Shown here piece after piece: positions 3,019 through 50,743 of a stretch of DNA of 50,743 nt. This DNA is from a virus (Duplodnaviria; Caudoviricetes): IMG/VR virus record IMGVR_UViG_3300025308_000004, positions 1 to 50,743 of that record; one strand, written 5' to 3'. The notes beneath the pieces are model-generated. The model saw only the letters and a program-made list of their open reading frames with translations. It was not told the origin of the DNA and did no database searches. How positions within the stretch are numbered: the first letter of the stretch is position 1; every line of letters starts with the position of its first letter. The translations under genes and the position numbers were made by a program.

Positions 3019-3177
3019 ATGAACTGGCTGACCAACATCGACCGCATGGCTGACAACGCACAACGCGCACGCTGCCACATCGCCGGGCTGGTATCGCACC
3101 ACATCCGCAGCATGGCGCAACTCAGGCGTGATCGGGCGGCGGAGAAATTGAGTAAACAACAAGGGGAAAGAAAATGA
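3019..3177 (+). CDS. Hypothetical protein (52 aa), not in the ORF track
   Basis: GAGG RBS, stop overlaps the bet start (ATGA). Confidence 0.5.
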   Translation: MNWLTNIDRMADNAQRARCHIAGLVSHHIRSMAQLRRDRAAEKLSKQQGERK

Positions 3178-38765: not shown

Positions 38766-38960
38766 TCATTTCGGCTCAATCCTATATTCGCACTCAAAAA
38801 CGACAATCTCTGGCGGACTCATCATCCAAACGCGCATCGGGTCTGGCGGAGGTGATGTTCTGCGCAGGCAATCATCGCAGCCCTCGCGCCAATACCATAC
38901 GCCATCCTCTTCGCTTCCGACTCCGGGGCATCGGGCTACGTCATTCGGAAGATTTGCCAT
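38766..38960 (-). CDS. Small Cys-containing phage protein
   Basis: GGAGG RBS; LPNDVARCPG...CDDCLRR. Confidence 0.6.
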   Translation of the reverse strand: MANLPNDVARCPGVGSEEDGVWYWREGCDDCLRRTSPPPDPMRVWMMSPPEIVVFECEYRIEPK

Positions 38961-39351
38961 AATACTCAATCGCCTCCTCTGCAAGAATCCTAACCTCGGT
39001 CGCGCCCAGCGTTCTTTTGGCAGATTCACGCAGGCTATCAACAAAATCGCGGCCATACAGATCGATCATTTTCAGCGTGTATTCTCTGATATGAAACTCT
39101 TTTCGGAACGTGTTGCACCCGCAACAGGCCGGTTTCAAGTTCTCTTCAAGCCATCGCGATGCCTTTTTCCCGCGCTCGATATAGTGCGCGCAATGTGCGT
39201 CTTTCCAGTGCAATCCGGTATCGCATGATATGCAGGTCACATATCCGGCGTGGTCTGCGTATTTCTGCCTGATGTATAGGCTCGCCAGTCGGTCTGCCTT
39301 TTCGATCAGCGTAGACAGTTTTACGCGCTTTGATTTGGTCTTTTGTTTCAC
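38941..39351 (-). CDS. ninG: NinG/Rap-like endonuclease
   Basis: YIR...CISC...AHYI.RG...N....C..CN pattern, nin-region position. Confidence 0.8.
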   Translation of the reverse strand: MKQKTKSKRVKLSTLIEKADRLASLYIRQKYADHAGYVTCISCDTGLHWKDAHCAHYIERGKKASRWLEENLKPACCGCNTFRKEFHIREYTLKMIDLYGRDFVDSLRESAKRTLGATEVRILAEEAIEYYGKSSE

Positions 39352-39548
39352 TCTATTTCCTTCGCCATGAATCTATCAGAATACACACATACAGTCACGC
39401 CAGAAACATACCGCGCGCGCTCAACTGGAGTTTTTGCGGCTCTGCATGATCTATATCCTTGGCGTGCCATTTCCTTTTCTACCTTCGAATCGCCAATGTA
39501 TGCGTTGAGGCAGTTTCGGCAGATTTTATCCTGTGAGCTTGCGGTCAT
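39348..39548 (-). CDS. Small Cys-containing protein
   Basis: CRNC motif; overlaps the ninG start. Confidence 0.55.
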   Translation of the reverse strand: MTASSQDKICRNCLNAYIGDSKVEKEMARQGYRSCRAAKTPVERARYVSGVTVCVYSDRFMAKEIE

Positions 39549-39621
39549 TTTTATGTGTAAAACTCGACTATAGCCAGATTAGGCACCTGCGCAGGTGCAT
39601 ATCACACGTTAGGAGACTTAT

Positions 39622-39945
39622 ATGGACGATATGAAGGTTCTCGAAAAGGATGGCGTAATCGACCATGACGCAATAGAAACAATAGTTCGCGTACAGGTGT
39701 TAGAAGCCATCGTTTCGTTGCAGTCCAACGCGTTGGTGGCGGCCCTATCTCTTTTTGAAGACGCAGAGCGAACTCGGCAGCTGAAGGGAATGGAAGATCG
39801 GCTAAAAGAGATTGAGGCTGATTACAAGACGATTTACATGACATCGCTATCTCCAATGGATTCTGATTATTCGGCAGAGTTGATTCAAGAAGTTCTCTCT
39901 GGTTATTTTGCTCAAATGCGTCGATCACTTGGCATCCACTCCTAA
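39622..39945 (+). CDS. Cassette A1 ORF (canonical orientation), hypothetical
   Basis: AGGAG RBS within the core site; stop TAA lies in the R'' box TCCTAAC. Confidence 0.7.
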   Translation: MDDMKVLEKDGVIDHDAIETIVRVQVLEAIVSLQSNALVAALSLFEDAERTRQLKGMEDRLKEIEADYKTIYMTSLSPMDSDYSAELIQEVLSGYFAQMRRSLGIHS

Positions 39946-39999
39946 CCTTACGTTCAACCCGGACCCCGCGAAGCGGGGCCGGTTACTTCCACGTTATGC
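39940..39999 (+). other. attC site A1 (60 nt)
   Basis: TCCTAAC-CTTAC-GTTCAACC...GGTTACT-TCCAC-GTTATGC with GC-rich central hairpin. Confidence 0.88.
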
Positions 40000-40003
40000 G
40001 TCT

Positions 40004-40240
40004 TCATGCCGCGCGCCCCTGCATGAATTCCTGAATGGTGCTCGGCTCCATGTATTCCAACGCGTGTGTCGGGTGGTACAGCCCTGACCTGCGACGGCCC
40101 GCTATGCGGATGCGCAAATACTTCCCCTTTGACCCCGTGATTGTTCCTGGAATGCCGACACCATCGTCCAGCATCACCCTCACATCACCGCCGCGCTTTG
40201 CTGGCACGCCATAGGTCTTGCGTATATATTCCATGCTCAT
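40004..40240 (-). CDS. Cassette A2 ORF (antisense), phage-type hypothetical
   Basis: GGAG RBS; MEYIRKTYGVPAKRGG...YHPT. Confidence 0.75.
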   Translation of the reverse strand: MSMEYIRKTYGVPAKRGGDVRVMLDDGVGIPGTITGSKGKYLRIRIAGRRRSGLYHPTHALEYMEPSTIQEFMQGRAA

Positions 40241-40264
40241 TATTGTTTCTCCGTATCACCGGCC

Positions 40265-40436
40265 GCCGAACCCGACACTCCAAGCGCCCTCCGGCATCTG
40301 CACTCTATTCGCCTGTCTTGGAGTGCAGCATCCGCACTGCCCTGCTATTTGAGGGTGAGGCTACCAATTTCTCCACCACTGCCATTGTTCAACCAATGCC
40401 TAAAGCCGCGCAAGGCACCTTAGCTACACGTTAGAA
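40265..40436 (+). other. Degenerate or composite attC A2
   Basis: GCCGAAC-CCGAC-ACTCCAAG left half and CCTTAGC-TACAC-GTTAGAA right half, 172 nt overall with poor pairing. Confidence 0.45.
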
Positions 40437-40604
40437 CGCATCGTATCGCGTCATGTACAGCACGCCATTATACAGATACCAGACCGCAGTTATTTGGCCG
40501 TGTCGCTCAGTGATCTTCTTTCCGAACAACCGAAGTTTCAGCATGAACCAGAAACTTGGATCGAATGTGCTCTTGCACGGAAACTGGAAATATTGTTCGT
40601 TCAT
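40431..40604 (-). CDS. Cassette A3 ORF (antisense), hypothetical
   Basis: GGAGG RBS; stop codon is the TTA of core site GTTAGAA. Confidence 0.6.
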   Translation of the reverse strand: MNEQYFQFPCKSTFDPSFWFMLKLRLFGKKITERHGQITAVWYLYNGVLYMTRYDAF

Positions 40605-40623
40605 TTCTTCCTCCACAAATGCG

Positions 40624-40683
40624 CCCTAACCATACGGTCAAGGCGGACTCCGCTACTCTCCGCCGCTTACCTTTTCGTTAGCC
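40624..40683 (+). other. attC site A3 (60 nt)
   Basis: CCCTAAC-CATAC-GGTCAAGG...GCTTACC-TTTTC-GTTAGCC. Confidence 0.8.
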
Positions 40684-40973
40684 GGCAACACTCCGAGCGC
40701 CTGCGCTTGCTCAACCGTCACCAACATTTGAGGGGGGCTTCGGCTGTGCAACGCCACAAGTCTGTCCACGTAGGGCTTCGCCGCCTTGGCGTAGCTCTCT
40801 TGCAGCATCGCCAAGGTTTCTCGCAGGTAGCGTTCCTCAGATGCGTCCGCGCAATCGCGGAAGGCATAGCGGCGCTCGCACGGCGTCGGCGGGCTGTCGT
40901 CCGGGTGGCAGGTGCATTGCCGGCTAACAGTTACGTCAACCGGACCTTGCGCCGGAATCAGCGTTTCACTCAT
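40653..40973 (-). CDS. Cassette A4 ORF (antisense), starts in attC A4 and stops in attC A3
   Basis: AGGAGG RBS and ATG in the attC loop; CTCHPDD.P.PC motif. Confidence 0.7.
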   Translation of the reverse strand: MSETLIPAQGPVDVTVSRQCTCHPDDSPPTPCERRYAFRDCADASEERYLRETLAMLQESYAKAAKPYVDRLVALHSRSPPQMLVTVEQAQALGVLPANEKVSGGE

Positions 40974-41020
40974 GATTTACCTCCTGTGCCGGCGCAAGGC
41001 CGGTTACGTCAGCGTTGGGC
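40922..41020 (+). other. attC site A4 (99 nt)
   Basis: GGCTAAC-AGTTA-CGTCAACC-GGACCTTGCGCCGG...CCGGCGCAAGGCC-GGTTACG-TCAGC-GTTGGGC; 12-nt perfect complementarity between cassette start and R'' flank. Confidence 0.88.
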
Positions 41021-41271
41021 GTCAGGGCATCGCGAGCAAATTGATTCCGCTGCGCTCCTGTCATGTATTCGCTATCCTCTGTTTCGCACAATTGCACCAG
41101 GACGGCTTCGCGCAGCCGGTATATTTCTTCTCTCGCATCTTTCAGTAACACCACACCATCGCGCTGCAACATGTGCGGCGATAGTTGGCGAAGATGCGCT
41201 TCGATTCTTTCGAGCACGCCCAACCCTACGGTCGAGCCGGACTCCTCACTACGCTTCGCTTCGTTCGTCAC
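40966..41271 (-). CDS. Cassette A5 ORF (antisense), starts in attC A5 and stops in attC A4
   Basis: GGAGG RBS from the attC L'/R' spacer, GTG start. Confidence 0.65.
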   Translation of the reverse strand: MTNEAKRSEESGSTVGLGVLERIEAHLRQLSPHMLQRDGVVLLKDAREEIYRLREAVLVQLCETEDSEYMTGAQRNQFARDALTPNADVTGLAPAQEVNHE

Positions 41272-41292
41272 CGCTCACCTCCATCGTTCGGC
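41218..41292 (+). other. attC site A5 (75 nt)
   Basis: GCCCAAC-CCTAC-GGTCGAGC...GCTCACC-TCCATC-GTTCGGC. Confidence 0.82.
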
Positions 41293-41294
41293 AC

Positions 41295-41323
41295 GTGTTC
41301 CCCACTCGCGTGGGGATGAACCG
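41295..41323 (+). CRISPR. Solitary type I-E-like CRISPR repeat (not an array)
   Basis: GTGTTCCCCACTCGCGTGGGGATGAACCG: 29 nt, 7-bp stem, 4-nt loop, ATGAACCG handle; 23/29 identical to the E. coli I-E repeat as I recall it; no second copy seen. Confidence 0.75.
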
Positions 41324-41329
41324 TTTTGC

Positions 41330-41878
41330 TTATAGTTGTATACTTTCTTTCAGCCAATCCGAATATGGTATGCGGATATTCTGGTGAAATTTATCGGCAG
41401 CATCTTCGTTATTGTCCAATTCTGCGCGGCTTTCAATGTCGCAAAATACTAGGATGGCATGGCGGCAGAATTCCTGCCAGTTCGCCACCGTGATTCCGAT
41501 TTCCATATCGCCATGCCCCAGCCCGTTCCCGCCTAATTCTCGGTCGTAGATTGGCCTGATCCATTGGTAAAACGATAAATCATTGCACCACATGCCGGCC
41601 AGCTTCGCCAGCGCGCCGCCTTTGGCTGAATGCTCGACTTTCTGCGCGACTGGCTCTATCGGCTGGTCATCGTCTCCCACTTCGATCAGCACCGCCATAA
41701 AGCGTTGCCCTGCCGTGTTCCCCTTCTTCGCGGTCATGCCCTTGAATGGCTCAAGCGCAGCCGAATCAGGTAGCCAGAAGGTAATCTTCGCCCCTGCCGT
41801 GTGGCTCTCCTGCCAGCCGGCCAGCATGATTTCACCCTGAAAACTCGGTTTTATACTCACTGCAATTTCCTCCACCAA
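41330..41878 (-). CDS. Conserved-looking phage hypothetical protein
   Basis: LAGMWCND..F and IESRAELDN motifs; nin-like region; start uncertain. Confidence 0.7.
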   Translation of the reverse strand: MVEEIAVSIKPSFQGEIMLAGWQESHTAGAKITFWLPDSAALEPFKGMTAKKGNTAGQRFMAVLIEVGDDDQPIEPVAQKVEHSAKGGALAKLAGMWCNDLSFYQWIRPIYDRELGGNGLGHGDMEIGITVANWQEFCRHAILVFCDIESRAELDNNEDAADKFHQNIRIPYSDWLKESIQL

Positions 41879-42066
41879 GCCCGAAACGCCGCAGGGTCGT
41901 AATATGCTTTCCCCCTGTGCCTTAATTTCGGCTCTGGCGCACCGTGAGCAGCCAATCGTCCGCGAAGCTGCGCCATCGTTACACCAAACTCTGCGGCGAA
42001 CTCTAGCGCGGTTCTGAGCGGCTTGTTGCCGCGCTCTCGGGGTGCGTTGTAGTGGGATAAATTCAT
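41857..42066 (-). CDS. Small HTH (excisionase/AlpA-like) protein
   Basis: EFAAEFGVT...PEP...YYDP pattern. Confidence 0.55.
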   Translation of the reverse strand: MNLSHYNAPRERGNKPLRTALEFAAEFGVTMAQLRGRLAAHGAPEPKLRHRGKAYYDPAAFRAWWRKLQ

Positions 42067-42338
42067 TGTGCCGCTCCTGGTTGTATTTCCTTCGCTTCCT
42101 CTATCAGCCTAACCTGCTCCCGCAATCGCTCGATATCACGGTCAATATCGGTAGTGTTCTTTCCGCCTGCTATGTATAGCTCGCGTATCCAGATTAGGTT
42201 AGTTAGCATTCTGGACTTTAGGCAGGCTGGTTTGTTTTGCACAGCTTCCTCAATTAGTGCCGCGTTTAGCACATTAACTTGCGCGGCTTCAAGCTTCAAC
42301 AGGTGATGCAGTCGGCTAAAAAATACTGCACCAAGCAT
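42063..42338 (-). CDS. Hypothetical protein
   Basis: ORF coupled to next gene; start uncertain. Confidence 0.45.
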   Translation of the reverse strand: MLGAVFFSRLHHLLKLEAAQVNVLNAALIEEAVQNKPACLKSRMLTNLIWIRELYIAGGKNTTDIDRDIERLREQVRLIEEAKEIQPGAAQ

Positions 42339-42349
42339 GTGTAATACTG

Positions 42350-43954
42350 TTATTCGAGCATGGATAAAATATCGGTCTGCCGGTAAGAGCGCGAGCCTTT
42401 ATGCGAGCCAAACAATGATCCTTGACTTAGTTCTCGTTCAATCCTCGCGCTTGCTGCCTTGAAAAAATCTTTCTTGATCTCAAAACCATAGGCTTCACGC
42501 TCAGACCTGATGGCAGCGATTATTGTTGATGCGCTACCAGCGCACGGGTCGATAATAACATCGCCTGGATCGGTGAATATTGAAATCAATCGCTCGATCA
42601 ATCGAACAGGTTTTTGAGTGTTGTGCGATACGCCAATTTCAGTGTCAAACGCAGGAATGCCATCAATTGTCAGATTGTAAACTCGCGTTTTTTGATGGAT
42701 AATTTTTACGCTTCCAACCTTTTGCAGTAAGAACTTTTCTTGTTTCAATGCTTTTTTGACAGAAGCATTTTTTGCATAGCTTCCCGTTAATCCAGCCTCT
42801 TGAAAAGTACCAATGTTCTTTTGTTGCTGGCTTGAACTCGCCACAGACTGAACACGGCTTTTCCCATTCTCCATCGACAAGTCTGCAACCAGAGTGCAGC
42901 CGCTTATGTTCAAGGGGCGTGACAAGTTGCAAATTGGAAATATTGTTGTTTGTTTTGTCGAAATCCTTGTGATGAACCTGCATACCGAGCGGTAATTTAC
43001 CATTATGCCGCTCCCAAACAAGGCAATGTTCGAGGCGAAGCTTTCCTTCTTCGTCTTTTTCAAATCGCAAATATCCCTTGGGGGTTTTTTTGTATTCTTT
43101 TCGCATGTAATCTCCGTTTTGTGTAATTGCTTAGGCTTCTGCGTATTATACACAGAAACGTTACTCAATACAAAATCGGATGTCTTTATTTGATCGGCAT
43201 TTACCCAAAATATGCCACCACCTCTTTTTATTAAAAACGGATGGTTCCATGTTGCTACGGTTTTATACTCGCCGCATTTTATTTCAACTAGTTTTTCGGC
43301 GTCATGCTGCGTGATGTGTGAGACAGTTCCGTATCTATTTGAATCTCCAACTTTTACGTCTTCGATTTTTACCCATAAGCCATTAAAAAATACCATTTCT
43401 CCTGCTGGAAGGCACGGATGGATCTTCTCGCTGTTGGTATCGTTCTCCCATGGTATTGCATTAAAAATCATCTTCCCGTGATTGTTGAATTTTGGGAGCT
43501 TGTCGCGGTACAGAATCAGCCCGTATTCGCAGTTTCCGACGACACGCATATTTGCCTTGAGCACCTGCGCGCTTGAATTCTTTACGAACACAAGATTGAT
43601 GTAATTATTCAGGCCATGCTTCTTCGCCTCTTCGATCAACTGGAATTGCTGATCGAACGCACAGAACACAATCATGCATGGAGCCTTGCCTGTTTCTTTT
43701 GGCTCAGGTATCAGCATCTTCGAGCAAAAATGCAAAAATTCTGGTATGCGAAAATCTTTATCGGTGTCGAAGAATTCTTTGTTTGCCAATGCGCTTTCGC
43801 CGTTTTTTATGTCGCCGCCCTCATACCACTCAACCGACGAACCGTAGGCTTTTTTCCCAACGTTATACGGAATGTCCGCAATAATGAGCTGCGCCTTTTT
43901 AATGGCGTAACGCTTCGAGTTTTGGAAGTGATCGTTAAAAAGTTCGTGCTTCAT
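42350..43954 (-). CDS. Beta-class N6-A/N4-C DNA methyltransferase interrupted by an intein
   Basis: DIPY (motif IV), HP|TQKP split by the insert, IIDPCAGSAST (motif I), YGFEI. Confidence 0.88.
   Translation of the reverse strand: MKHELFNDHFQNSKRYAIKKAQLIIADIPYNVGKKAYGSSVEWYEGGDIKNGESALANKEFFDTDKDFRIPEFLHFCSKMLIPEPKETGKAPCMIVFCAFDQQFQLIEEAKKHGLNNYINLVFVKNSSAQVLKANMRVVGNCEYGLILYRDKLPKFNNHGKMIFNAIPWENDTNSEKIHPCLPAGEMVFFNGLWVKIEDVKVGDSNRYGTVSHITQHDAEKLVEIKCGEYKTVATWNHPFLIKRGGGIFWVNADQIKTSDFVLSNVSVYNTQKPKQLHKTEITCEKNTKKPPRDICDLKKTKKESFASNIALFGSGIMVNYRSVCRFITRISTKQTTIFPICNLSRPLNISGCTLVADLSMENGKSRVQSVASSSQQQKNIGTFQEAGLTGSYAKNASVKKALKQEKFLLQKVGSVKIIHQKTRVYNLTIDGIPAFDTEIGVSHNTQKPVRLIERLISIFTDPGDVIIDPCAGSASTIIAAIRSEREAYGFEIKKDFFKAASARIERELSQGSLFGSHKGSRSYRQTDILSMLE
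42620..43414 (-). mobile_element. Intein (265 aa, residues 181-445)
   Basis: Starts CLPAGEMV, block B VATWNHPFL, ends VYNLTIDG...VSHN followed by Thr. Confidence 0.88.
42663..43106 (-). CDS. HNH endonuclease nested out of frame within the intein
   Basis: EHCLVWERHNG...VHHKDFDKTNNNISNLQLVT..EH; own GGAG RBS; C-terminal CxxC pairs. Confidence 0.85.
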   Translation of the reverse strand: MRKEYKKTPKGYLRFEKDEEGKLRLEHCLVWERHNGKLPLGMQVHHKDFDKTNNNISNLQLVTPLEHKRLHSGCRLVDGEWEKPCSVCGEFKPATKEHWYFSRGWINGKLCKKCFCQKSIETRKVLTAKGWKRKNYPSKNASLQSDN

Positions 43955-44009
43955 GTTATCCCCTACTATCGTTCCGACACTCTACACTAAGCAACAATTT
44001 TATGCTGAT

Positions 44010-44180
44010 TTATTTTGCAGATTTCTTAATAAACATATCCGCCGCAGATAGCGCCTTGCGCAGCACCTCAATCGGCAAATCAATATCGGCTTCCTTGTGC
44101 GGTACACCGTTCCAAATCAGCACCCGTCCGCCGACAAGTTGGATGGTTACGTCCTCAACTTCGAATGTTATGCTGCCCAT
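44010..44180 (-). CDS. Hypothetical protein (56 aa), not in the ORF track
   Basis: GGAGG RBS, TAATG overlap. Confidence 0.55.
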   Translation of the reverse strand: MGSITFEVEDVTIQLVGGRVLIWNGVPHKEADIDLPIEVLRKALSAADMFIKKSAK

Positions 44181-44635
44181 TATTTCCTCCGTTGCGCTAC
44201 TGATTCCAGCTCATTGTAAAAAGCGCGATACTTTGCTGTGCGCTCGAAGTCTTTAATCCCTGGATCTTTGATACGCCTAATATCGCTGTTGTGTCGAAGG
44301 TCTGCCATCTTTACGATAACTGCGTCAGGGTTTGCCTTCACCGCTGATTTATATTCTTCGTAGCTCTGGCCGCGATGCTTTGTCATCGCCATAATCCCTG
44401 AAATAACTCGTTCACTAAATCCGAGTTCGCGCAAATGCTGTGCTGTGACATCGGTATCTTCAAACAAATCATGCCCGATTGCTATCTGACCGAGTTCGTC
44501 ATCGCTATCTCTTGGCAAATAGTGTAGCACCTTCATGCAATGAAGGATGTACGGACGGCCAGATTTATCCAGAATGTTTTTAAATTTATCGGCTGCAATC
44601 GCAATCATCATCGCGAGCTGTTTACTTTGTTCCAT
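44180..44635 (-). CDS. HD-domain hydrolase, SpoT/Mesh1-like (small alarmone hydrolase-like)
   Basis: DKSGRPYILH, HDLFEDT, VKMADLRHN. Confidence 0.8.
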   Translation of the reverse strand: MEQSKQLAMMIAIAADKFKNILDKSGRPYILHCMKVLHYLPRDSDDELGQIAIGHDLFEDTDVTAQHLRELGFSERVISGIMAMTKHRGQSYEEYKSAVKANPDAVIVKMADLRHNSDIRRIKDPGIKDFERTAKYRAFYNELESVAQRRK

Positions 44636-44789
44636 TTTTCATTCTCCGTTGCGCTGCGATGATGTCCTTTACCCTTGATTCAGATAGGCCGTAGATCAAT
44701 GCGATGCTTTTCTGGCGCATTTCGTCCTCGGTGAATAGGCGGTGTATTTCGGCGTTTCTGGCGGCGTAGGATTGGCGTATGGTTTTCAT
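44622..44789 (-). CDS. Small HTH (Mor-like) protein, 55 aa, not in the ORF track
   Basis: RNAEI...IALIYGLSESRVKDII; ATGA overlap. Confidence 0.5.
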   Translation of the reverse strand: MKTIRQSYAARNAEIHRLFTEDEMRQKSIALIYGLSESRVKDIIAAQRRMKNGTK

Positions 44790-45604
44790 TCTGCCGAACC
44801 CCTGTAGCTATCCCAATTAAACGGCACACAAGCCCCACCATCCTCTCGCAATCGGTCGAACACGCGCTCGCCTAGAAAAACTTTTACCTCGCTTGGCGAT
44901 AGGTTAGAAAGCAGTAAAGTCGGCAACCTGTTTTCGTATCGCTCGTTCAAAACGTCGAACATCGCATTACGCTCAAAATCGCTACCGAACTGCACCCCGA
45001 TCTCGTCGATAATCAGCAAATCAGGCGACGAAAACAGCGACACAACATCGCTTTCAGATTCGTCTGAATCTTTGCGCCATGCGTCCTTGATTCTGCGCAT
45101 CATGCGTTGCACAGTGGTAAACAGCACGATCCCGCCGCGATTCATTACCGACAAGCCGATTCCTACTGACAAGTGCGTTTTCCCAGTACCCGGCTTTCCG
45201 CAAAATATCGCGCTTCGCCCGGTCTTTGAAACTTCGCTGAACTTTTCCGCGTACTCAGTCGCGAAAGCATGCGCGCTTTTCTGGCCTTCGTTCTTTGCTT
45301 CGAATTTTTCCAGTGTGCGATCAGTGAATCGAACAGGAATACCGGATTCACCAAGCCTTCGTTCCCATTGCCGCTGCTTTTCGGCGGCATCTCTGTCCCG
45401 CTCTGCGCGATCAGCATTTTCCATTTCAATCGCAGTGCATGCAGGGCATTTCGTCCACACTGAACCGAACACGTTTCGGCTATCAAACTCCCCATGCGTT
45501 TCGCAGGTTGCTTTGCGTGGTATCGGGTCGATCATCATCAACTTCAATTTACCCAACGATACCGGCTCTTCGTCTTCAATTTCAAAACTGTTTGCGTTGT
45601 TCAT
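44786..45604 (-). CDS. DnaC/IstB-like AAA+ helicase loader
   Basis: GKPGTGKT, LLIIDEIG, NERYEN.LPT...SNL, GERVFDRL. Confidence 0.9.
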   Translation of the reverse strand: MNNANSFEIEDEEPVSLGKLKLMMIDPIPRKATCETHGEFDSRNVFGSVWTKCPACTAIEMENADRAERDRDAAEKQRQWERRLGESGIPVRFTDRTLEKFEAKNEGQKSAHAFATEYAEKFSEVSKTGRSAIFCGKPGTGKTHLSVGIGLSVMNRGGIVLFTTVQRMMRRIKDAWRKDSDESESDVVSLFSSPDLLIIDEIGVQFGSDFERNAMFDVLNERYENRLPTLLLSNLSPSEVKVFLGERVFDRLREDGGACVPFNWDSYRGSAE

Positions 45605-46269
45605 AGCTTGGTAACTCCTTCGCCGTAGTCGCGATCATTAAAGTTTTCTGGTGATGCAGTTCGTTTTTGTCCAGCTGTCTTCGGCTCAAACAATCCCTGC
45701 CATCCATTTGACGCAGAATCAGCAAGCGACTGCGCGTATGGTAAACCTGCATCCTTCCACTTTCGCAGCTTATCGACTTGTGCCTGCATTTGCTCAGGAA
45801 GCATCTTTTTTCCCTTTCTGGTTTTTATCCACAATTCCCAATGACTACGATCAACCCAGTCCGGCAAGGCGAAAGCCGCGCTAGGTTTCTTCTGCTTCTT
45901 CTCTGTCTCTGTCTCTGTCTCTGTCTCTTCTCTTCTCTTCTCTGGTGCGTCATCTTGGCAACAAATTGACGCCACCTTGACGCCATCTTGCGGAGCATCT
46001 ATAAATCCATGTTCTATAAACAAGTTTAAATCTGGCTCAGTATCAAGATGGCAAAGTTTTTGAATGGCGCGAGGTGACGCCGGGATGACGCCATTGTGGT
46101 CAGCAGCAAGCAACCAGATGGCGACAAGTTGACCGCGCTGTGAGTCAGTCAGCGTTACCCACCCTATGTGGCGCATGCACTCGCGATGGATTTTTATCCA
46201 CGGCGGCTGTCCACGATCTTTCCGGTAGGATTGCCACTTGTCCCAGTTGTGAATGGTAAGGTTACTCAT
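45601..46269 (-). CDS. Phage replication initiator
   Basis: IHNWDKWQSY...PPWIK, ETETETETE linker, NGWQGLF C-terminus; upstream of the DnaC-like gene. Confidence 0.75.
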   Translation of the reverse strand: MSNLTIHNWDKWQSYRKDRGQPPWIKIHRECMRHIGWVTLTDSQRGQLVAIWLLAADHNGVIPASPRAIQKLCHLDTEPDLNLFIEHGFIDAPQDGVKVASICCQDDAPEKRREETETETETEKKQKKPSAAFALPDWVDRSHWELWIKTRKGKKMLPEQMQAQVDKLRKWKDAGLPYAQSLADSASNGWQGLFEPKTAGQKRTASPENFNDRDYGEGVTKL

Positions 46270-46270
46270 C

Positions 46271-46957
46271 TTACATGTCCTTCCCGTACCGCTTTGCCAG
46301 CCAGACAATACCCTCCGGCTCAACCTTCGTCTGAACGAATGCATGGCCGTTTGATTCGCCAGTGTGCAGGGTGAATAAGCCGCGATCAATGTAGTCTTGA
46401 AACGCCACCCAGTTACCGCCGCGCTTGAAAATCACCTTGTCGGCGGATAGTTCCGCGATGAACTCTTGCGGCTTGCGTTGCAGGATTTTTGCTACATCGG
46501 ATAGGCACTTGCTGGAACGAGCCTCAACGTAACGCTCTACGAAGGCAACGGCGGGCTTTTGTTGCTCTATCTGGGCTTGCTGTGCTTCGATGATTTCGGC
46601 TTGCTCTGCGGCTAGTCTAAGCGCGCCGGATAGCGTGGTAGGAATAGCGAACTGTTGCTGGGCTTCCAGTTCTTGCCATCGGTCGATTATTTTTGCGCGC
46701 TGGGCGATTGAGTAACCAGAGGTAAGAATCAAGGCTTCACGCTTCGGGAGGTCAACATGGCTAACCAATCCATTGCCCATGTTGTTCCATACGCGAATGC
46801 CTTTAAAATCAGGACTATCCAATTTTGGATACCCGTCTGGATAAAGTTCATCCAGCATCTTGCGAATATCTCGCAAAACATGTCCGTGTTCTTTGTCTGT
46901 TATTTCCGCAATGTCCTTGCTGGACATGGTTTGCTGGTTGCTGTGTATATGTAGCAT
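46271..46957 (-). CDS. Rha-family / antirepressor (Rha N-terminus plus KilA-C/ANT)
   Basis: [53 protein letters not shown]. Confidence 0.85.
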
Positions 46958-46971
46958 TTTGCGATCCAATG

Positions 46972-47080
46972 CAAAAAAGCCTTGAGGGAATCTCCAACCA
47001 GCTAGCTGGCTTTGGTCGCGTGGAGAGTATCCACCGGAGATTCCTTCAAGGCTTACTCAAGCGTCCGACCAAGGACGACG
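46972..47080 (-). ncRNA. c4-like attenuator leader upstream of the antirepressor
   Basis: Minus strand: hairpin CGTCC-TTGGTC-GGACG, then long hairpin AAGCCTTGA.GGAATCTCC/GGAGATTCC.TCAAGGCTT containing GACCAA, then a T run. Confidence 0.6.
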
Positions 47081-47101
47081 CCGAAAGTTCAGCGCAAAAG
47101 G

Positions 47102-47129
47102 ATTATAGCGATAGCTGCGACATTTGCAA
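47102..47129 (-). promoter_or_regulatory. Promoter TTGCAA-16-TATAAT
   Basis: Perfect -10 directly upstream of the leader. Confidence 0.6.
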
Positions 47130-47130
47130 C

Positions 47131-47159
47131 AAAAAAAAGACCTGCCACTAGGACAGGTC
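47131..47159 (-). terminator. Rho-independent terminator
   Basis: GACCTG(T)CC-TAGT-GGCAGGTC followed by T8. Confidence 0.7.
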
Positions 47160-47379
47160 AAAGCCTCGGGGGAGGAGTGTAGGCTGCTGGAATAGTGGCG
47201 CGGTAGGCAAATGCCGTTCGACGTACCTTCCACTTATAGCCAGCTTGGCTTGCTGTTTTAGGCCGGGAGCCACCCCTAATACGCCTGCTATTATTCCAAC
47301 AAGGAAGGGATTGCACAACTCGCCCGCTGCAACGGCTTATAAGTACTAAGCGCAGCAATCCCTATCTTGTTAGCCCTGA

Positions 47380-47408
47380 TTGCTCAGGGGTGTTTTATGG
47401 ATTATAAG
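47380..47408 (+). promoter_or_regulatory. Pc-like promoter facing cassette array B (TTGCTC-17-TATAAG)
   Basis: Consensus similarity; 22 nt upstream of the first core site. Confidence 0.45.
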
Positions 47409-47421
47409 ACAGATTTGGGGT

Positions 47422-47775
47422 CTAACTTACGTTAGATTTTTCAACCAAGGAGGTTTTATGAGTGATTCCAATATCAAAACAATCCACGGCCTTGTTCTCG
47501 TTCAGGGCGCTTTGCTTCAAGCTATGGCGTGGAAAGAAACGAGAAAATCTGATCTTCTTTACGAATTCTCTCAGCAGTACATACCACTTATTCAAGGTCT
47601 CAATAAGAACAAAGAGCCAGATAAAGAACTTATAGCAGCGGTCGAATTGGCGTATAAATCTATATCCGCACAACTCCCCAAAAACCACAGATCGAGCATT
47701 TCTTAAATAACACCATGCCGCAGCTCTATCTGCCGCCGCTTGGTTTCTTAAAAACTGTTCTCTCGTATAAGTCAT
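47422..47775 (-). CDS. Antisense overlapping ORF in B1 (MTYTREQFLRNQAAA...)
   Basis: RBS-like GAAGGGG; first 15 codons differ from the paralogue only synonymously. Confidence 0.5.
   Translation of the reverse strand: MTYTREQFLRNQAAADRAAAWCYLRNARSVVFGELCGYRFIRQFDRCYKFFIWLFVLIETLNKWYVLLREFVKKIRFSRFFPRHSLKQSALNENKAVDCFDIGITHKTSLVEKSNVS
47458..47706 (+). CDS. Cassette B1 ORF, paralogue of 48091-48318
   Basis: AAGGAGG RBS; synonymous differences versus the paralogue. Confidence 0.75.
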   Translation: MSDSNIKTIHGLVLVQGALLQAMAWKETRKSDLLYEFSQQYIPLIQGLNKNKEPDKELIAAVELAYKSISAQLPKNHRSSIS

Positions 47776-47804
47776 GGCGTTCACCCCTTCAAAAGGAAAA
47801 TAAA

Positions 47805-48005
47805 ATGAAAAAATATATCGTAGTAATTGCGCTCTTGTTGTCTTCTACTTCTGCATTCGCTGCTTCCGCCTTCTGGACGGGTCGCCAAGAACAAGTACAA
47901 ACCGTAACTTATCAATGGGCATGGAACTGTCAGTACAACTACAACGGCCAAATATTCTGGCGCATATTCAAAATGTCTTGCCCGTCTAGTGTCGAGGTTG
48001 AATAA
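47805..48005 (+). CDS. Small secreted protein (signal peptide, two Cys)
   Basis: MKKYIVVIALLLSSTSAFA signal; AAGGA RBS; ends just before attC B1. Confidence 0.75.
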   Translation: MKKYIVVIALLLSSTSAFAASAFWTGRQEQVQTVTYQWAWNCQYNYNGQIFWRIFKMSCPSSVEVE

Positions 48006-48007
48006 AA

Positions 48008-48070
48008 ATCTAACCCGCCGTTCAACCCGGACTCCGCAAGAGCGCGGAGCCGGTTAACTCTACGTTAGAT
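48008..48070 (+). other. attC site B1 (63 nt)
   Basis: ATCTAAC-CCGCC-GTTCAACC...GGTTAAC-TCTAC-GTTAGAT. Confidence 0.92.
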
Positions 48071-48405
48071 TTTTCAACCAAGGAGGTATCATGGAATCCA
48101 GCATCAAAACAATCCACGGTCTTGTTCTCGTTCAGGGTGCATTGCTTCAAGCTATTGCTTGGTCTAAAGCGAAAAATACTGAAATTGCTTTTGAGTTTTC
48201 GCAACAGTACATGCCAATTATTCAGGGTCTCAATAAGGAAAAAGAGCCAGATAAAGAACTTATATCCGCTGTGGAAAGGGCGCACAAAACCATCTCCGCA
48301 CAACTTCCTAAAAGATAAATATCTTGTGTCTCTCACATAACACCAAGATGAGGCCTTTTCTGCTGCTGCTTGATTTCTTAAAAACTGTTCGCGTGTGTAT
48401 GTCAT
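48022..48405 (-). CDS. Antisense overlapping ORF in B2, ends within attC B1
   Basis: AAGGA RBS; N-terminus conserved with the B1 copy. Confidence 0.5.
   Translation of the reverse strand: MTYTREQFLRNQAAAEKASSWCYVRDTRYLSFRKLCGDGFVRPFHSGYKFFIWLFFLIETLNNWHVLLRKLKSNFSIFRFRPSNSLKQCTLNENKTVDCFDAGFHDTSLVEKSNVELTGSALLRSPG
48091..48318 (+). CDS. Cassette B2 ORF, paralogue of 47458-47706
   Basis: AAGGAGG RBS; IKTIHGLVLVQGALLQA shared. Confidence 0.75.
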   Translation: MESSIKTIHGLVLVQGALLQAIAWSKAKNTEIAFEFSQQYMPIIQGLNKEKEPDKELISAVERAHKTISAQLPKR

Positions 48406-48426
48406 AGTGTTTAGTCCTTTCAAAAA

Positions 48427-48489
48427 ATCTAACCTGCCGTTCAACCAGACCGCCCAACAGCGGGGCGGCTGGTTAACTCTACGTTAGGC
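48427..48489 (+). other. attC site B2 (63 nt)
   Basis: ATCTAAC-CTGCC-GTTCAACC...GGTTAAC-TCTAC-GTTAGGC. Confidence 0.92.
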
Positions 48490-48825
48490 ACATGCGCGCC
48501 CGGTCTCTAATGCTTCGGCATGACCTCTGTATGTCGCAGCCGTGGCTTCGTAGTGACTTTGCAAATTACGCAGTGCCTGTGCAAGCGTCCTTCCGTTTGC
48601 AGTGTGCAGCCACACTGCGCGCTTACCGAACCCGGCGCTTTTTGCCTCGTACCGGTCAAAATCGTTTTGTTCCCGCCTTACAATTTGTAAAGTCGAAAGG
48701 CGATTAAACCCGCTCGATTGAATCCCCGTCGCGGACAGGTAATCTGGATTACTAGATTTATGGAGTGTCCAGTTATAGCCTGGCATTATTTTTTCAATCT
48801 CTGCTCTAAATTCTGTTGCCTTCAT
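48484..48825 (-). CDS. Cassette B3 ORF (antisense), phage-type hypothetical
   Basis: GAGG RBS; stop is the TTA of the core site. Confidence 0.75.
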   Translation of the reverse strand: MKATEFRAEIEKIMPGYNWTLHKSSNPDYLSATGIQSSGFNRLSTLQIVRREQNDFDRYEAKSAGFGKRAVWLHTANGRTLAQALRNLQSHYEATAATYRGHAEALETGRACA

Positions 48826-48855
48826 GGCCTACCTCTCTGTTATTTAGTAAATACA

Positions 48856-48921
48856 GCCTAACCCAACGGTGAAGAGGGATTGAACGATAAGGCCGTTCAA
48901 CCCCTTACCTCTACGTTGGGC
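48856..48921 (+). other. attC site B3 (66 nt)
   Basis: GCCTAAC-CCAAC-GGTGAAGA...CCTTACC-TCTAC-GTTGGGC. Confidence 0.88.
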
Positions 48922-49475
48922 ACCCACCCCGGAATGTTCAGGCGTACCAGAGTGCGCTTGCAATCCTTCGCCACTGGCACGGCTTCGTGCAAGAAGGTGA
49001 GCGTATGCCCCGCCCATACCTTGCTTGGTTCAATGTCAGTGCAAAGCATCCCGCTCACGTCAATGTGCGCGCAGTCCCCTCCGCTTCTTGGCGCATCGTC
49101 GTACTCTCCGAGGTATGCATAGCTTGCCATCACGTCCGTCGCCAATATCAGCGCCTCTGGCTCGTAGGCTTCGCCTATTACATGCCTGCCGCCTCTGTGT
49201 CCGCCGCCGTGTGCGTGTAGCGCCTTATTCCAATATCCGTCCACATGCACGCCGCCCCTGCGGTGCGATGCGCCAGCCTTTACTTCAGCCTGATCTATCA
49301 TCAAGAAAATCGAACCGGGCGCATCTATCCCATCAAGCATTTGGTCAATCGTTCCCTGCCACCGCTCAAGGTCGTTTGGCAATCCGCCGCTCTTCGTAAA
49401 TTCGCGCATGTAAACGCGCTCGCCGAGGAATTGCGGAAATTTAACTGCCCCGCGCTGTTGTACGTTGCTTTGCAT
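48897..49475 (-). CDS. Cassette B4 ORF (antisense), putative 2OG-Fe(II) oxygenase-like protein
   Basis: AAGGAG RBS; HVD...HEA...RTLVR metal/2OG-like motif; stops within attC B3. Confidence 0.6.
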   Translation of the reverse strand: MQSNVQQRGAVKFPQFLGERVYMREFTKSGGLPNDLERWQGTIDQMLDGIDAPGSIFLMIDQAEVKAGASHRRGGVHVDGYWNKALHAHGGGHRGGRHVIGEAYEPEALILATDVMASYAYLGEYDDAPRSGGDCAHIDVSGMLCTDIEPSKVWAGHTLTFLHEAVPVAKDCKRTLVRLNIPGWVPNVEVRG

Positions 49476-49501
49476 TTGATTCTCCTTTTCAAAGTTTGGT
49501 T

Positions 49502-49564
49502 GCCCAACCCATCGGTGAAGCGGAGCCGCCAAAAGCGGCGTCCCGCTTACCTCAAGCGTTAGAT
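49502..49564 (+). other. attC site B4 (63 nt)
   Basis: GCCCAAC-CCATC-GGTGAAGC...GCTTACC-TCAAGC-GTTAGAT. Confidence 0.9.
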
Positions 49565-49857
49565 GACTCGCGCTCAAGCCGTGCCCGCGCTTCCCATGCT
49601 AGCCCGTCGTCAGTCAAGCTTGCCGCCATCGCTGCGCAACATTCAGAGCACCAGCGGTAGCTCATCAGTTCCCCGTCAAACACCGCCGCCAGCAGTCGCA
49701 CGCGCTCGCCTGGCACAATCTCTTGCCGACACATGCCACAGGTTCCGCCCTTGCGCGCCGTGCCGATCTTGTCCTTCAGTACCTTGTCGCTTGGGCTGCC
49801 AAAGTCGCCCTCGAATGGGTTGGTTTTCAGGCACTCGGCTTCGTCAAACGTCGTCAT
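49552..49857 (-). CDS. Cassette B5 ORF (antisense), Zn-finger protein
   Basis: ARKGGTCGMCRQEI.PGE...CSEC; coupled to the cro-like stop; ends in attC B4. Confidence 0.7.
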   Translation of the reverse strand: MTTFDEAECLKTNPFEGDFGSPSDKVLKDKIGTARKGGTCGMCRQEIVPGERVRLLAAVFDGELMSYRWCSECCAAMAASLTDDGLAWEARARLERESSNA

Positions 49858-50060
49858 CTAACCCTCCATTCTTTCGGGATTGGAATCCGCGCAGCCTTCA
49901 TGCGCCTGATGATGTTAGCCGATTGCTTATCTGTAAGCTCTTCCGGCAGATACCAGATTGCATTGTCTGCGCGCTCGCCAGCCCATCCCAATTTTTTAGC
50001 AGCTTGGCGCAATGATACTCCGTCAGCCGTTAGGTGTTTAATCAAGTCTGCTTTTTTCAT
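49854..50060 (-). CDS. Cro-like HTH regulator
   Basis: MKKADLI...SLRQAAKKLG...IWYLPEEL; first gene after the divergent promoter. Confidence 0.7.
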   Translation of the reverse strand: MKKADLIKHLTADGVSLRQAAKKLGWAGERADNAIWYLPEELTDKQSANIIRRMKAARIPIPKEWRVR

Positions 50061-50066
50061 TGGCTT

Positions 50067-50095
50067 ATTATAAGCAAAGAATAAGTGCCTTGCAA
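50067..50095 (-). promoter_or_regulatory. Leftward early promoter TTGCAA-17-TATAAT (predicts leaderless mRNA)
   Basis: Near-consensus; -10 ends 6 nt before the ATG at 50060. Confidence 0.75.
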
Positions 50096-50124
50096 TTTAT
50101 TTTTAACCAGCACGAAAAAAGTGC

Positions 50125-50152
50125 TTGCATTATTCAAAATTGCTGGCACAAT
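50125..50152 (+). promoter_or_regulatory. Possible rightward early promoter TTGCAT-16-CACAAT
   Basis: Back-to-back with the leftward promoter; weaker match. Confidence 0.4.
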
Positions 50153-50581
50153 TGGAACCACTCCAGCAGCAATGCGAAGAGTGAAACGAACCGGAGCGCA
50201 AACGCAGTGCAGACTACCGCACCTTATCTACAGATCATCGTAGATCGGACAAACGTAAACCCTTAAGCGCAGACGTTACGAGATACACATTGCCGAAACC
50301 AAATCAACGGTGGAGAGCTGAATAGAATCTCTGTTCGCAGGGGATTGAATGTAGTGGATAGCAGTGGATGTTGCAATCGGCGTTGCCAAGATTCTGTTTG
50401 CTGGCGCTATTGGCGGAATCAGCGCAATGGTATTCGTAATTCCAGGTATCGCATTTTTGAAAAGCTGACGATTGAGTAATACGGATGGCGGCCACCCGAA
50501 CCAAACCGCCCGACCAAAGGATGTTCGACAGATTCCTTTCCAGCCTTGGACGGCACTTATTAACCAAATTGGAGATAGCAA

Positions 50582-50743
50582 ATGATACTGATAGACGGAG
50601 TTTGTTTCAAAACAATCGAAAGCGCAGCAAGTGCGCTTGTCGTGGCAAAGAAAGTTGAAATCTACAACCTGCCGCTGGTCACCGCGCTGCCTGATTTGCC
50701 AGCAGCGACTGATGTGCGCTTCTACAACATGCCGCTGGTCACC
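50582..50743 (+). CDS. LRR protein, N-terminal part (continues at nt 1)
   Basis: GGAG RBS; MILIDGVCFKTIESAASALVVAKKVEIYNLPLVTALPDLPAATDVRFYNMPLVT. Confidence 0.8.
   Translation, partial: MILIDGVCFKTIESAASALVVAKKVEIYNLPLVTALPDLPAATDVRFYNMPLVT

Follow-up and report, generated by a model that had tools for sequence, protein, structure and literature searches.

Integrase-less attC arrays in a phage genome with mostly inverted gene cassettes and putative translation initiation signals in attC loops

Background

Integron cassettes are usually described as promoterless top-strand genes with an attC recombination site at the 3′ end, and in sedentary chromosomal integrons near-identical attCs are attached to unrelated genes. 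That phages, too, carry attCs has been realised only recently. Here we analyse two attC arrays, A (39.6-41.3 kb) and B (47.4-49.6 kb), in the genome of a phage (Duplodnaviria; Caudoviricetes) represented by the IMG/VR record IMGVR_UViG_3300025308_000004, whose 50,743 bases comprise the whole virus (rated 100% complete) and are referred to below as the window. These arrays reverse the usual description, in that most of their genes lie on the bottom strand. Comparative sequence analysis establishes the identity and polarity of the sites, the coding strand of the cassettes, the in-frame recurrence of a loop motif and the swapping of protein termini, and we consider it probable that the arrays are genuine integron-type cassette arrays without an integrase, i.e., clusters of attC sites lacking an integron integrase (CALINs), with attCs of canonical polarity, mostly inverted genes and an attC loop that serves as a translation initiation region.

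A CALIN is defined as two or more attC sites that share a strand and are spaced by less than 4 kb, no integron integrase (IntI) being close by (PMC4889954, PMC9892861). Such clusters have been described in phages, and phage attCs were recombined by IntI1, the bottom strands better than the top strands (Qi et al. 2023, PMC9892861). The arrays in the window are alike in being attC arrays without IntI inside a phage genome; bottom-strand genes, translation signals in loops and hairpin-encoded protein termini are not described in the available portions of that paper. With canonical integron arrays they share the R′′/L′′/L′/R′ architecture, the extrahelical bases, the single gene per cassette, the complementary flanking R boxes and the attachment of one attC family to many unrelated genes. 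Unlike those arrays, they have no IntI, attI or cassette promoter (Pc), their genes are on the bottom strand with attC on the 5′ side, and phage promoters would drive their expression. Translation signals within an integron recombination site are known from ORF-11 of attI1, where a Shine-Dalgarno (SD) sequence and a start codon lie in the site, the stop lies in the GTTRRRY core and translation is coupled to the adjacent cassette; stops overlapping attC and effects of the attC hairpin on the translation of the next cassette are likewise known (PMC8876359, PMC11511950). The phage signals differ from ORF-11/attI1 in being placed in the attC loop and on the bottom strand, in starting the cassette's own protein and in recurring between many cassette pairs.

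In T4-type phages, promoter-early stem-loops (PeSLs), which combine a promoter with a terminator-like stem-loop and have no integron R or L boxes, are conserved stem-loops that flank small accessory genes and mark shuffling breakpoints. The arrays studied here too have conserved stem-loops around small genes in hyperplastic regions, with the difference that these hairpins carry translation rather than transcription signals: none of 10 promoter-like sites at 39300-50743 lies inside a hairpin, as the early promoter joined to the stem-loop of a PeSL would. In the lambda nin region, genes are coupled by overlapping stop and start codons (ATGA), the overlap not lying in a conserved recombinogenic hairpin; array A occupies the corresponding position and also has small genes joined by overlapping stop and start codons. 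A literature search exclusive of subscription journals and supplements found no account of bottom-strand cassette genes with starts in an attC loop. Phage CALINs are, then, already known, and the inverted, translation-integrated form is new relative to the literature found.

Two arrays of attC sites

Inspection of the + strand reveals direct repeats of the unit RYYYAAC ... GTTCAAC-type ... GTTAAC-type ... GTTRRRY. A covariance model, R1, was built from six window sites and two sites of the related locus L001 (L-numbers denote related loci) and was run on the window with filters off and E ≤ 10, which gave 22 matches. It backs eight sites, all on the + strand: A1, A3, A4 and A5 in array A and four (B2 to B5) in array B. 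The six seed sites score 57.7-77.5 bits; the non-seed site A5 was recovered at 41216-41294 (40.6 bits, E 1.8e-8), and A4 gave a partial match of 13.8 bits and, at full length, 29.7 bits (E 3.2e-5). Beyond these eight, no R1 match below E 1 occurs anywhere in the 50.7 kb, and Rfam at gathering thresholds yields no match in the window. With four sites each, all on the + strand and without IntI, both arrays conform to the definition of a CALIN; an integron integrase was sought with TIGR02249 and not found in the whole record (E ≤ 1e-5), and the adjacent intI, attI and Pc of a complete integron are absent. The arrays are composed as follows, with lengths in amino acids (aa) or nucleotides (nt), R1 scores in bits and bottom-strand fold z-scores.

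Array A
39608..39614, + strand: lone R′ box GTTAGGA, left boundary of the array, with no attC hairpin before it
39622..39945, + strand: cassette C1 gene, 107 aa; stop in the R′′ TAA of A1
39940..39999, + strand: attC A1, R′′ at 39940-39946 and R′ at 39993-39999; 69 bits (seed); z −2.46
40004..40240, − strand: cassette C2 gene, 78 aa; phrog_2730, E 1.4e-12
40430..40436, + strand: GTTAGAA box, remnant of A2; its TTA is the stop of C3
40431..40604, − strand: cassette C3 gene, 57 aa; ATG at 40604 preceded by GGAGGA
40624..40683, + strand: attC A3, 57.7 bits (seed); the loop contains the TAG stop of C4 at 40653-40655
40653..40973, − strand: cassette C4 gene, 106 aa; its predicted start is the ATG in the A4 loop
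40922..41020, + strand: attC A4, long-loop class; 33-nt loop at 40956-40988; 29.7 bits; z −4.88
40966..41271, − strand: cassette C5 gene, 101 aa; predicted GTG start in the A5 loop; C-terminal tail PNADVTGLAPAQEVNHE encoded by A4
41218..41292, + strand: attC A5, long loop and weak stem; 40.6 bits, not a seed; z +1.47 (poor)

Array B
47420..47437, + strand: mini-site GTCTAAC-TTAC-GTTAGAT, R′′ and R′ boxes without a hairpin core, left boundary of the array; 10.8 bits, E 1.1
47458-47706 and 47805-48005, + strand: cassette B1, two open reading frames (ORFs), the second (66 aa) with a signal-peptide-like start; top strand by codon model
48008..48070, + strand: attC B2, 77.5 bits (seed); z −4.49
48091..48318, + strand: cassette B2 ORF, 75 aa, paralogue of the B1 ORF; top strand by codon model
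48427..48489, + strand: attC B3, 66.7 bits; the TTA of its R′ box is the stop of the B3 gene
48484..48825, − strand: cassette B3 gene, 113 aa; 344 homologues, with variable tails after a conserved ...GR
48856..48921, + strand: attC B4, 70.2 bits; z −5.73; the PNVEVRG tail and the stop codon of B4 lie within it
48897..49475, − strand: cassette B4 gene, 192 aa from the ATG at 49475; phrog_8970, E 1.9e-50
49502..49564, + strand: attC B5, right end of the array; 59.1 bits; z −3.09
49552..49857, − strand: backbone gene after the cro-like gene; phrog_19515, E 6.9e-19; last codons and stop in the R′ box and spacer of B5

To assess covariation, 44 sites of the window, its related loci and the host contigs were combined in an alignment that was fitted to R1, so that the pairing figures favour the structure: 88.1% of cells pair, versus 69.7% in shuffled alignments and 26-44% when the partner is slid, and 164 double-sided changes are observed versus 56.7 in shuffles. 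Helices 2 and 3 are paired at 93.8% and 87.7%, and 13 of their 15 pairs have changed on both sides, which is the behaviour of an L′′/L′ inner inverted repeat that keeps its structure rather than its sequence. The core sites R′′ (RYYYAAC) and R′ (GTTRRRY) are present, and the AAC/GTT triplets are practically invariant, with standard pairs in 42, 44 and 44 of the 44 sites. Among 27 adjacent pairs, the R′′ box shows perfect complementarity to the preceding site's R′ box in 17, versus one of 27 for its own R′ box; in 2000 trials, random pairing averaged 2.1 such pairs and never exceeded 8. Cassettes flanked by complementary R′ and R′′ boxes mark an attC array because crossover in the R box generates them in integron arrays. 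Of the 10 imperfect pairs, some probably contain an undetected intervening site.

At the left end of array A, the lone R′ box at 39608..39614 is perfectly complementary to the R′′ box of A1 (TCCTAAC). Array B begins with the mini-site at 47420-47437, which may be the scar of a hairpin loss; a comparable mini-site is present inside a class 1 integron (L035 3791-3815). The initial annotation had counted a further attC, A2, at about 40372-40440, which we rejected: R1 does not find it at E ≤ 10, its fold has a z of −0.95, and what is left is the GTTAGAA box at 40430-40436, a remnant at best.

Polarity of the sites

Judged from the sequence, the canonical attC top strand is the + strand of the window, which makes the minus ORFs genuinely inverted; folds, a class 1 integron, host arrays and the joint travel of hairpin and gene agree on this. 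In the predicted bottom-strand folds, bulged bases are confined to the 3′ arm in A1, A4, B2 and B3 (four of the six well-folding sites), this being the arm expected of extrahelical bases and the one used by the aac(6′)-Ib attC; unpaired bases are predicted on the 5′ arm too in B4 and B5. In the class 1 integron control (L035, plasmid pJF-786, retrieved with a host IntI as query), R1 matches the aac(6′)-Ib4 attC on the resistance-gene strand (27.4 bits, E 1.1e-5).

The host chromosomal arrays are a stronger polarity control than the class 1 integron. The hairpin type of A4 (see below) is present in two metagenome-assembled genomes (MAGs), of a Rhodocyclaceae (G001) and a Rhodoferax bacterium, both of which encode a true IntI (484.6 and 392.1 bits, cut-off 265); host assignment follows the MAG record titles, and two of the four genomes that hold the motif are without IntI and may be binning noise. 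The host IntI is ~60% identical to IntI1. The Rhodocyclaceae MAG has arrays of R1-type attCs, with scores of up to 56.8 bits, on contigs other than that of IntI, and the ORFs between or just after them are all on the modelled strand (L042, with four sites, L036 and L043), as are those of L046 in the Rhodoferax MAG. These candidate host arrays thus have the canonical orientation, with a top-strand coding sequence (CDS) ending near R′′, and L045, a phage-like region of the Rhodocyclaceae MAG, is bottom-coded. The IntI contig of the candidate host (L033) has lost its cassette side at the contig end, and that of the Rhodoferax MAG has weak attC matches (15.5 and 12.5 bits). Finally, six different upstream genes are each followed by an A4-type hairpin with one and the same downstream gene (GRLRTHAEAH...), which bears on polarity because hairpin and gene would form one canonical cassette. 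The initial annotation had allowed that the recombinogenic strand might be the opposite one, which would make the minus ORFs canonical; the bulged bases, the class 1 integron, the host arrays and R1 all speak for canonical polarity instead.

The recombinases beside attCs on contigs C115 and C87 of G001 were considered as IntI candidates and rejected, being IS91-associated tyrosine recombinases. On these contigs, an IS91-type transposase fragment and an accessory tyrosine recombinase adjoin canonical attC arrays (L036, on C115, 3-1182; L043, on C87, 2277-3184), and such a recombinase can be mistaken for a weak IntI match (~94 bits).

Coding strand of the cassettes

All seven minus ORFs are conserved proteins with homology support and point the same way as the phage early operon. 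With 55 long ORFs as training set, a codon model assigns six of the eight testable bounded cassettes of the window to the bottom strand and two to the top strand; in related arrays, 19 of 22 bounded cassettes are called bottom, one top and two are uncalled. The canonical orientation, a top-strand CDS ending near R′′, is accordingly not that of the window, where six of nine bounded cassettes are bottom-coded. C2, for instance, has a codon score of 19.6 on the bottom strand versus 0.6 on the top strand, and the full C3 ORF (40431-40616) has 12 homologues, mostly of 57 aa, which fits the ATG at 40604. GC content by codon position was discarded as a coding test, as it did not separate real from shadow ORFs, and the codon model was used instead.

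The claim of the initial annotation that seven of 10 cassettes carry ORFs only on the bottom strand survives in part. The count stands if the A2 remnant is accepted as a boundary and the backbone gene at 49552-49857 is included (bottom: C2, C3, C4, C5, B3, B4 and the backbone gene; top: C1, B1 and B2), and not otherwise; the word "only" does not stand, since + strand shadow ORFs exist (e.g., 40494-41387, 297 aa). Homology and the codon model favour the minus ORFs as genes over these shadow ORFs, and the bottom coding of 19 of the 22 bounded cassettes in related phage-associated arrays bears out the further proposal of a phage-adapted class that is more than a one-off.

The top-strand cassettes C1, B1 and B2 look real as well. 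For the C1 protein, a single cluster of homologues was found (49% identity, E 6.6e-19); the B1 and B2 cassettes are paralogues of each other (47433-48484; 77% identity over 300 nt). Each of the latter two has a strong AAGGAGGT SD, an ORF of 75-82 aa without a family match and, on the opposite strand, a conserved stretch starting MTYTREQFLRNQAAA; neither B1 ORF has a family match. Searches of the cassette proteins against Pfam returned nothing except a sub-threshold DUF7576 match. Among GenBank phages (50,697 records, blastn), array A has no match and array B one weak match of 224 nt, and the related-locus search found no IMG/VR relatives of 41330-41878 and 40966-41271.

Putative translation signals in the attC loops

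The initial annotation had read the A4 loop as ribosome-binding site, start of the next gene and stop of the previous one, and the sequence at 40956-40988 bears this out. On the − strand, the 33-nt loop contains ..AGGAGGTAAATCATGAGTGA.., in which AGGAGG (40985-40980) is followed after six nucleotides by ATGAGTGA (40973-40966), comprising the predicted start of C4 and the stop of C5. The same holds for A5, said to supply GGAGG and GTG: GGAGG-N6-GTG is found on the − strand at 41282-41269, and homologues start in the same place with ATG (MT.E...). The more general claim of translation signals in the attC hairpins applies to A4 and A5 and fails for the other six of the eight window attCs; in A3, B3, B4 and B5 the SD and ATG of the next gene are located 20-30 nt outside the hairpin.

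An exact-pattern scan for the A4 motif returned 11 IMG/VR stretches and five genome-contig stretches, which with the window make 16 distinct sites, at which near-identical hairpins lie between unrelated genes in viral and Betaproteobacteria-labelled contigs. In every one of the 16, the frame opened by the loop ATG crosses the 3′ arm and the R′′ box, yielding leaders of the type MSE..IPAQGPVDV.V or MST..IAQGPVDV.V, and continues into the downstream gene; these genes comprise at least nine unrelated ones. The ORFs opened in this way are complete in ten cases with 56-213 aa and in one with 32 aa, and are truncated by the locus end in five. Upstream, the best frame terminates at the TGA of the loop at nine sites (1 or 5 nt after the A of the ATG), at the R′-box TAA at six and elsewhere at one. 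The SD-spacer-ATG(A) is retained across at least four loop variants, while the remaining loop bases differ. Of 41 sites, 14 have an in-hairpin SD and start codon leading into an ORF of 50 aa or more on the bottom strand, versus one on the top strand. In predicted RNA ensembles (n = 14), the unpaired probability is 0.85 for the AUG and 0.51 for the SD, as compared with 0.05 for the stem arm.

The stops at 40431, 40653, 48484, 48897 and 49552 do lie in or at attC boxes, as had been claimed. We dropped a stop inside attC as evidence, since it does not discriminate between the strands (33 bottom versus 31 top of 41 sites). Similarly discarded was the idea that the hairpin stops all three frames by design, as by our own estimate about a quarter of random 60-nt stretches do likewise.

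From these patterns, we infer the use of the loop start, its translation and termination-reinitiation coupling. In the mechanism we propose, attC would be placed 5′ of its own gene in an inverted cassette, and in the long-loop attC class (88-104 nt), to which A4 belongs and, in a looser sense, A5, the loop would have been turned into the translation initiation region of that gene. The SD and start codon would be displayed in the loop, and the 3′ arm and R′′ box translated as an N-terminal leader of 15-20 residues. The upstream gene would stop at the R′ TAA, or traverse the 5′ arm to a TGA overlapping or just past the ATG (ATGA or ATGAGTGA), a geometry expected to lead to termination-reinitiation coupling with the upstream ribosome opening the stem. 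The bottom-strand genes would be read on a phage polycistronic mRNA, not from an integron Pc promoter.

Hairpin-encoded protein termini

The protein ends PNADVTG, PNVEVRG and ANEKVSG, which the initial annotation ascribed to attC, are indeed hairpin-encoded. Its suggestion that reshuffling swaps protein termini also finds support, in that homologue families display swapped hairpin-encoded leaders and tails around a conserved core. Thus, C5 (40966-41271) has 10 homologues with a conserved core and variable termini, the core extending from GLG (R′′ box GTTGGGC) to ..FARDAL-x-PN (R′ box CCCAAC), with differing leaders and the tails PNADVTGLAPAQEVNHE, PNVELRG.., PNAEVIR, PNDKLRGAL and PNA. The family of 48484-48825 has variable ends after ..GR, including PNVKLRG and ..VTGLAP tails, and the B4 protein ends in ..WVPNVEVRG in the window versus ..WVPNGTELTGTP in the L001 copy. 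At the N-terminus, the first 16 residues of C4 are encoded by the 3′ arm of A4 and the R′′ box; its homologue in L004 has 83% identity over residues 14-59, with many synonymous differences, and starts MNVSRQC.., the 39-nt 3′ arm being missing in frame. We propose that, the cassette ending at RYYYAA|C, a gene without an earlier stop would get its C-terminal tail from the next hairpin.

A related observation concerns a gene common to L007 (~4310-4460) and L006 (~500-530), which diverges right after CCGCCCAAC; in L007 no hairpin follows, and the frame goes on into an additional segment rich in Cys, apparently through fusion of proteins at a cassette boundary.

Module boundaries and mode of exchange

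In a blastn comparison of the window with all related loci, the shared pieces within 39-50.7 kb are all cassette-sized. The stretch 48914-49508, common to L001 with 93.4% identity, extends exactly from R′ to R′′ and constitutes the B4 module. The A4 hairpin (40919/40926 to 41016/41024) is shared in many contexts, the C4 start is shared with L004, and the breaks of contigs from four metagenome runs fall at 40676, 40917-40922 and 41016-41024. The summed depth of the A4 region reaches 1800-2957 in two wastewater runs, and the hairpin is therefore abundant in many contexts. Cassette-excision joints were not seen in the metagenome-run contigs, where the coverage of the phage is only ~1-3.

We infer that the cassettes are moved by a host IntI, the breaks of homology at the R boxes being indirect evidence of recombination by an integron integrase. 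Genome sites other than att can also receive cassettes through IntI, and slippage readily removes folded attCs (bioRxiv 10.1101/2022.09.11.507474). Such insertion and loss would fit the half hairpin of L004, the mini-site at 47420-47437 and the lone R′ box at 39608.

Alternative explanations

Several observations weigh against reading the arrays as inverted CALINs with a loop adapted to initiation. The phage itself has no IntI and encodes RecT- and RecE-like proteins, which provide another route to module exchange. The folds of A5 (z +1.47) and A3 (z −0.94) are poor, and the class 1 control is significant for one of its three attCs, the GES-5 attC scoring 4.7 bits and the dfrA14 attC not being found. 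Start signals are present in just two of the eight window attCs (A4 and A5), and 10 of the 14 start-inside sites were chosen by a pattern containing SD and ATG, the frequency among unselected sites being five of 31. Neither of the hairpin cores flanking the B4 module recurs beside its L001 copy, which counts against the reading because under bottom-strand-only recombination by IntI a canonical cassette should bring its own attC. Top-strand recombination, which phage attCs undergo at lower frequency (PMC9892861), or RecT/RecE exchange are possible sources of these unshared cores. The related sequences are, moreover, all metagenome assemblies, in which abundant hairpins of ~100 nt could yield chimeric joins; such joins could weaken the claims on gene neighbours, not the design of each half-junction.

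It is hardly credible that the polarity is reversed, with the − strand as the top strand and the minus ORFs as ordinary canonical cassette genes. The R boxes are palindromic and the complementarity of R′′ to the preceding R′ is symmetric, so this part of the evidence is silent on polarity; R1, in turn, gives the same sites 30-77 bits on the + strand versus less than 11 bits on the − strand, the modelled strand is the gene strand in the class 1 integron and host chromosomal arrays, the bulged bases occupy the arm that they occupy in the aac(6′)-Ib attC, and it is the gene on the R′′ side with which the hairpin travels. We also regard as improbable, to a lesser degree, that the loop signals are neutral by-products, the genes having taken nearby in-frame starts and stops and the hairpin being no adapted coupler and perhaps a hindrance to translation. 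This would account for the six window sites without a start signal; stops in attC are usual for ordinary cassettes (PMC11511950) and show no strand preference here, and attC hairpins have been reported to reduce downstream translation (PMC8876359, PMC11511950). It sits poorly with the retention of SD-spacer-ATG across at least four loop variants despite other loop changes, with the in-frame loop ATG at all 16 sites, leading into at least nine unrelated genes, and with the strand asymmetry of the start-inside sites (14 versus one).

A further alternative, which we judge unlikely and yet a more serious competitor than these two, is that the attC-derived hairpins are mainly conserved linkers, with exchange by RecT/RecE or template switching rather than IntI and with signals that keep the operon readable. 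It draws on the RecT-like and RecE-like genes at 3174-5713, the absence of IntI from the phage, the break of the window/L001 homology at both R boxes with both hairpin cores replaced, and hairpin variants that are mosaic-like, combining the same inner stem with different loops and outer stems. The perfect complementarity of flanking R boxes (17 of 27, versus one of 27 for a site's own boxes) is, by contrast, a specific product of R-box crossover, and seven base pairs are very short for homologous recombination. The AAC/GTT triplets are also invariant and the extrahelical bases conserved, a true IntI is encoded by both Betaproteobacteria-labelled genomes with these hairpins (the Rhodocyclaceae and Rhodoferax MAGs), and published phage attCs recombine with IntI1 (PMC9892861). 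Integron-type arrays with inverted genes and initiating loops remain our preferred reading.

Implications

A recombination site that doubles as ribosome-binding site and start codon would be an answer to the problem of shuffling small genes in tight operons without loss of translation, and the recombination context would rewrite the N- and C-termini of the proteins. Phage mosaicism would also be linked to the host integron system, whose IntI is the relative of IntI1 mentioned above. In practical terms, gene callers and IntegronFinder-type pipelines that expect a top-strand CDS will mis-annotate inverted cassettes.

As a broader and rather doubtful extension, Betaproteobacteria phages might keep their own pool of inverted cassettes, with attC as a portable 5′ initiation module, shuffling linked to transcription and exchange with host integrons via IntI. 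If this were true, a polycistronic phage operon could take up any gene without its translation being lost. The recombinogenic bottom strand would be the non-template strand of the early operon, exposed as single-stranded DNA by transcription or RecE resection, and expression and cassette shuffling would thereby be linked. Such a phage pool could generate new gene-attC combinations, which bears on the open question of cassette origin.

Genome context and other features

PHROG matches indicate a lambdoid-like layout, for the most part on the − strand, with small and large terminase, portal and other late genes in the record. Array A is placed between the replication genes and NinG, and the best explanation of the placement of the two arrays is that they sit in the phage's two plastic early regions. 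The relevant neighbouring features are:

3174-5713, + strand: genes for a RecT-like annealing protein and a RecE-like exonuclease (PHROG matches)
38941-39351: NinG/Rap (PHROG match)
44.8-47.0 kb: anti-repressor and O-like and DnaC-like replication genes (PHROG matches)
47159-47139, − strand: terminator-like hairpin (consensus match only)
49854-50060, − strand: cro-like gene (PHROG layout)
50067..50095, − strand: promoter-like site TTGCAA-17-TATAAT just upstream of the cro-like gene (consensus match only)

The RecT/RecE-like pair is a phage recombination system and could be the alternative shuffler of hairpin-bounded modules considered above. The promoter-like site at 50067..50095 is a candidate early promoter for the bottom-strand genes of array B; promoter-like matches are overall no more numerous than in shuffles.

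Next to array A, a 29-nt repeat lies at 41295-41323 (+), 2 nt past the R′ box of A5, as the sole copy in the window. Two wastewater runs have contigs in which the identical repeat recurs at intervals of 24-36 other letters, i.e., in arrays of clustered regularly interspaced short palindromic repeats (CRISPR); it resembles a type I-E CRISPR repeat, and the copy in the window may be a phage-borne solitary repeat. A permissive Rfam scan around 41200-41420 gave only a chance-level match.

The DNA methyltransferase (N6/N4) at 42350-43954 (−) has a Pfam match over residues 22-501 that is split by an intein-like segment, Intein_splicing scoring 33.5 bits, slightly below its cut-off of 35.8. In the Rhodoferax MAG, a 29-bp perfect inverted repeat (L034 842-870 and 1820-1849) flanks an inverted two-gene unit beside the IntI gene, which by the look of its sequence is a PIN-type toxin-antitoxin pair. 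At the end of the phage record, a 23-nt direct repeat TCTACAAC.TGCCGCTGGTCACC is present in two copies 60 nt apart at 50661-50743 and reaches the last base; these may be iterons or a repeat truncated by the contig end.

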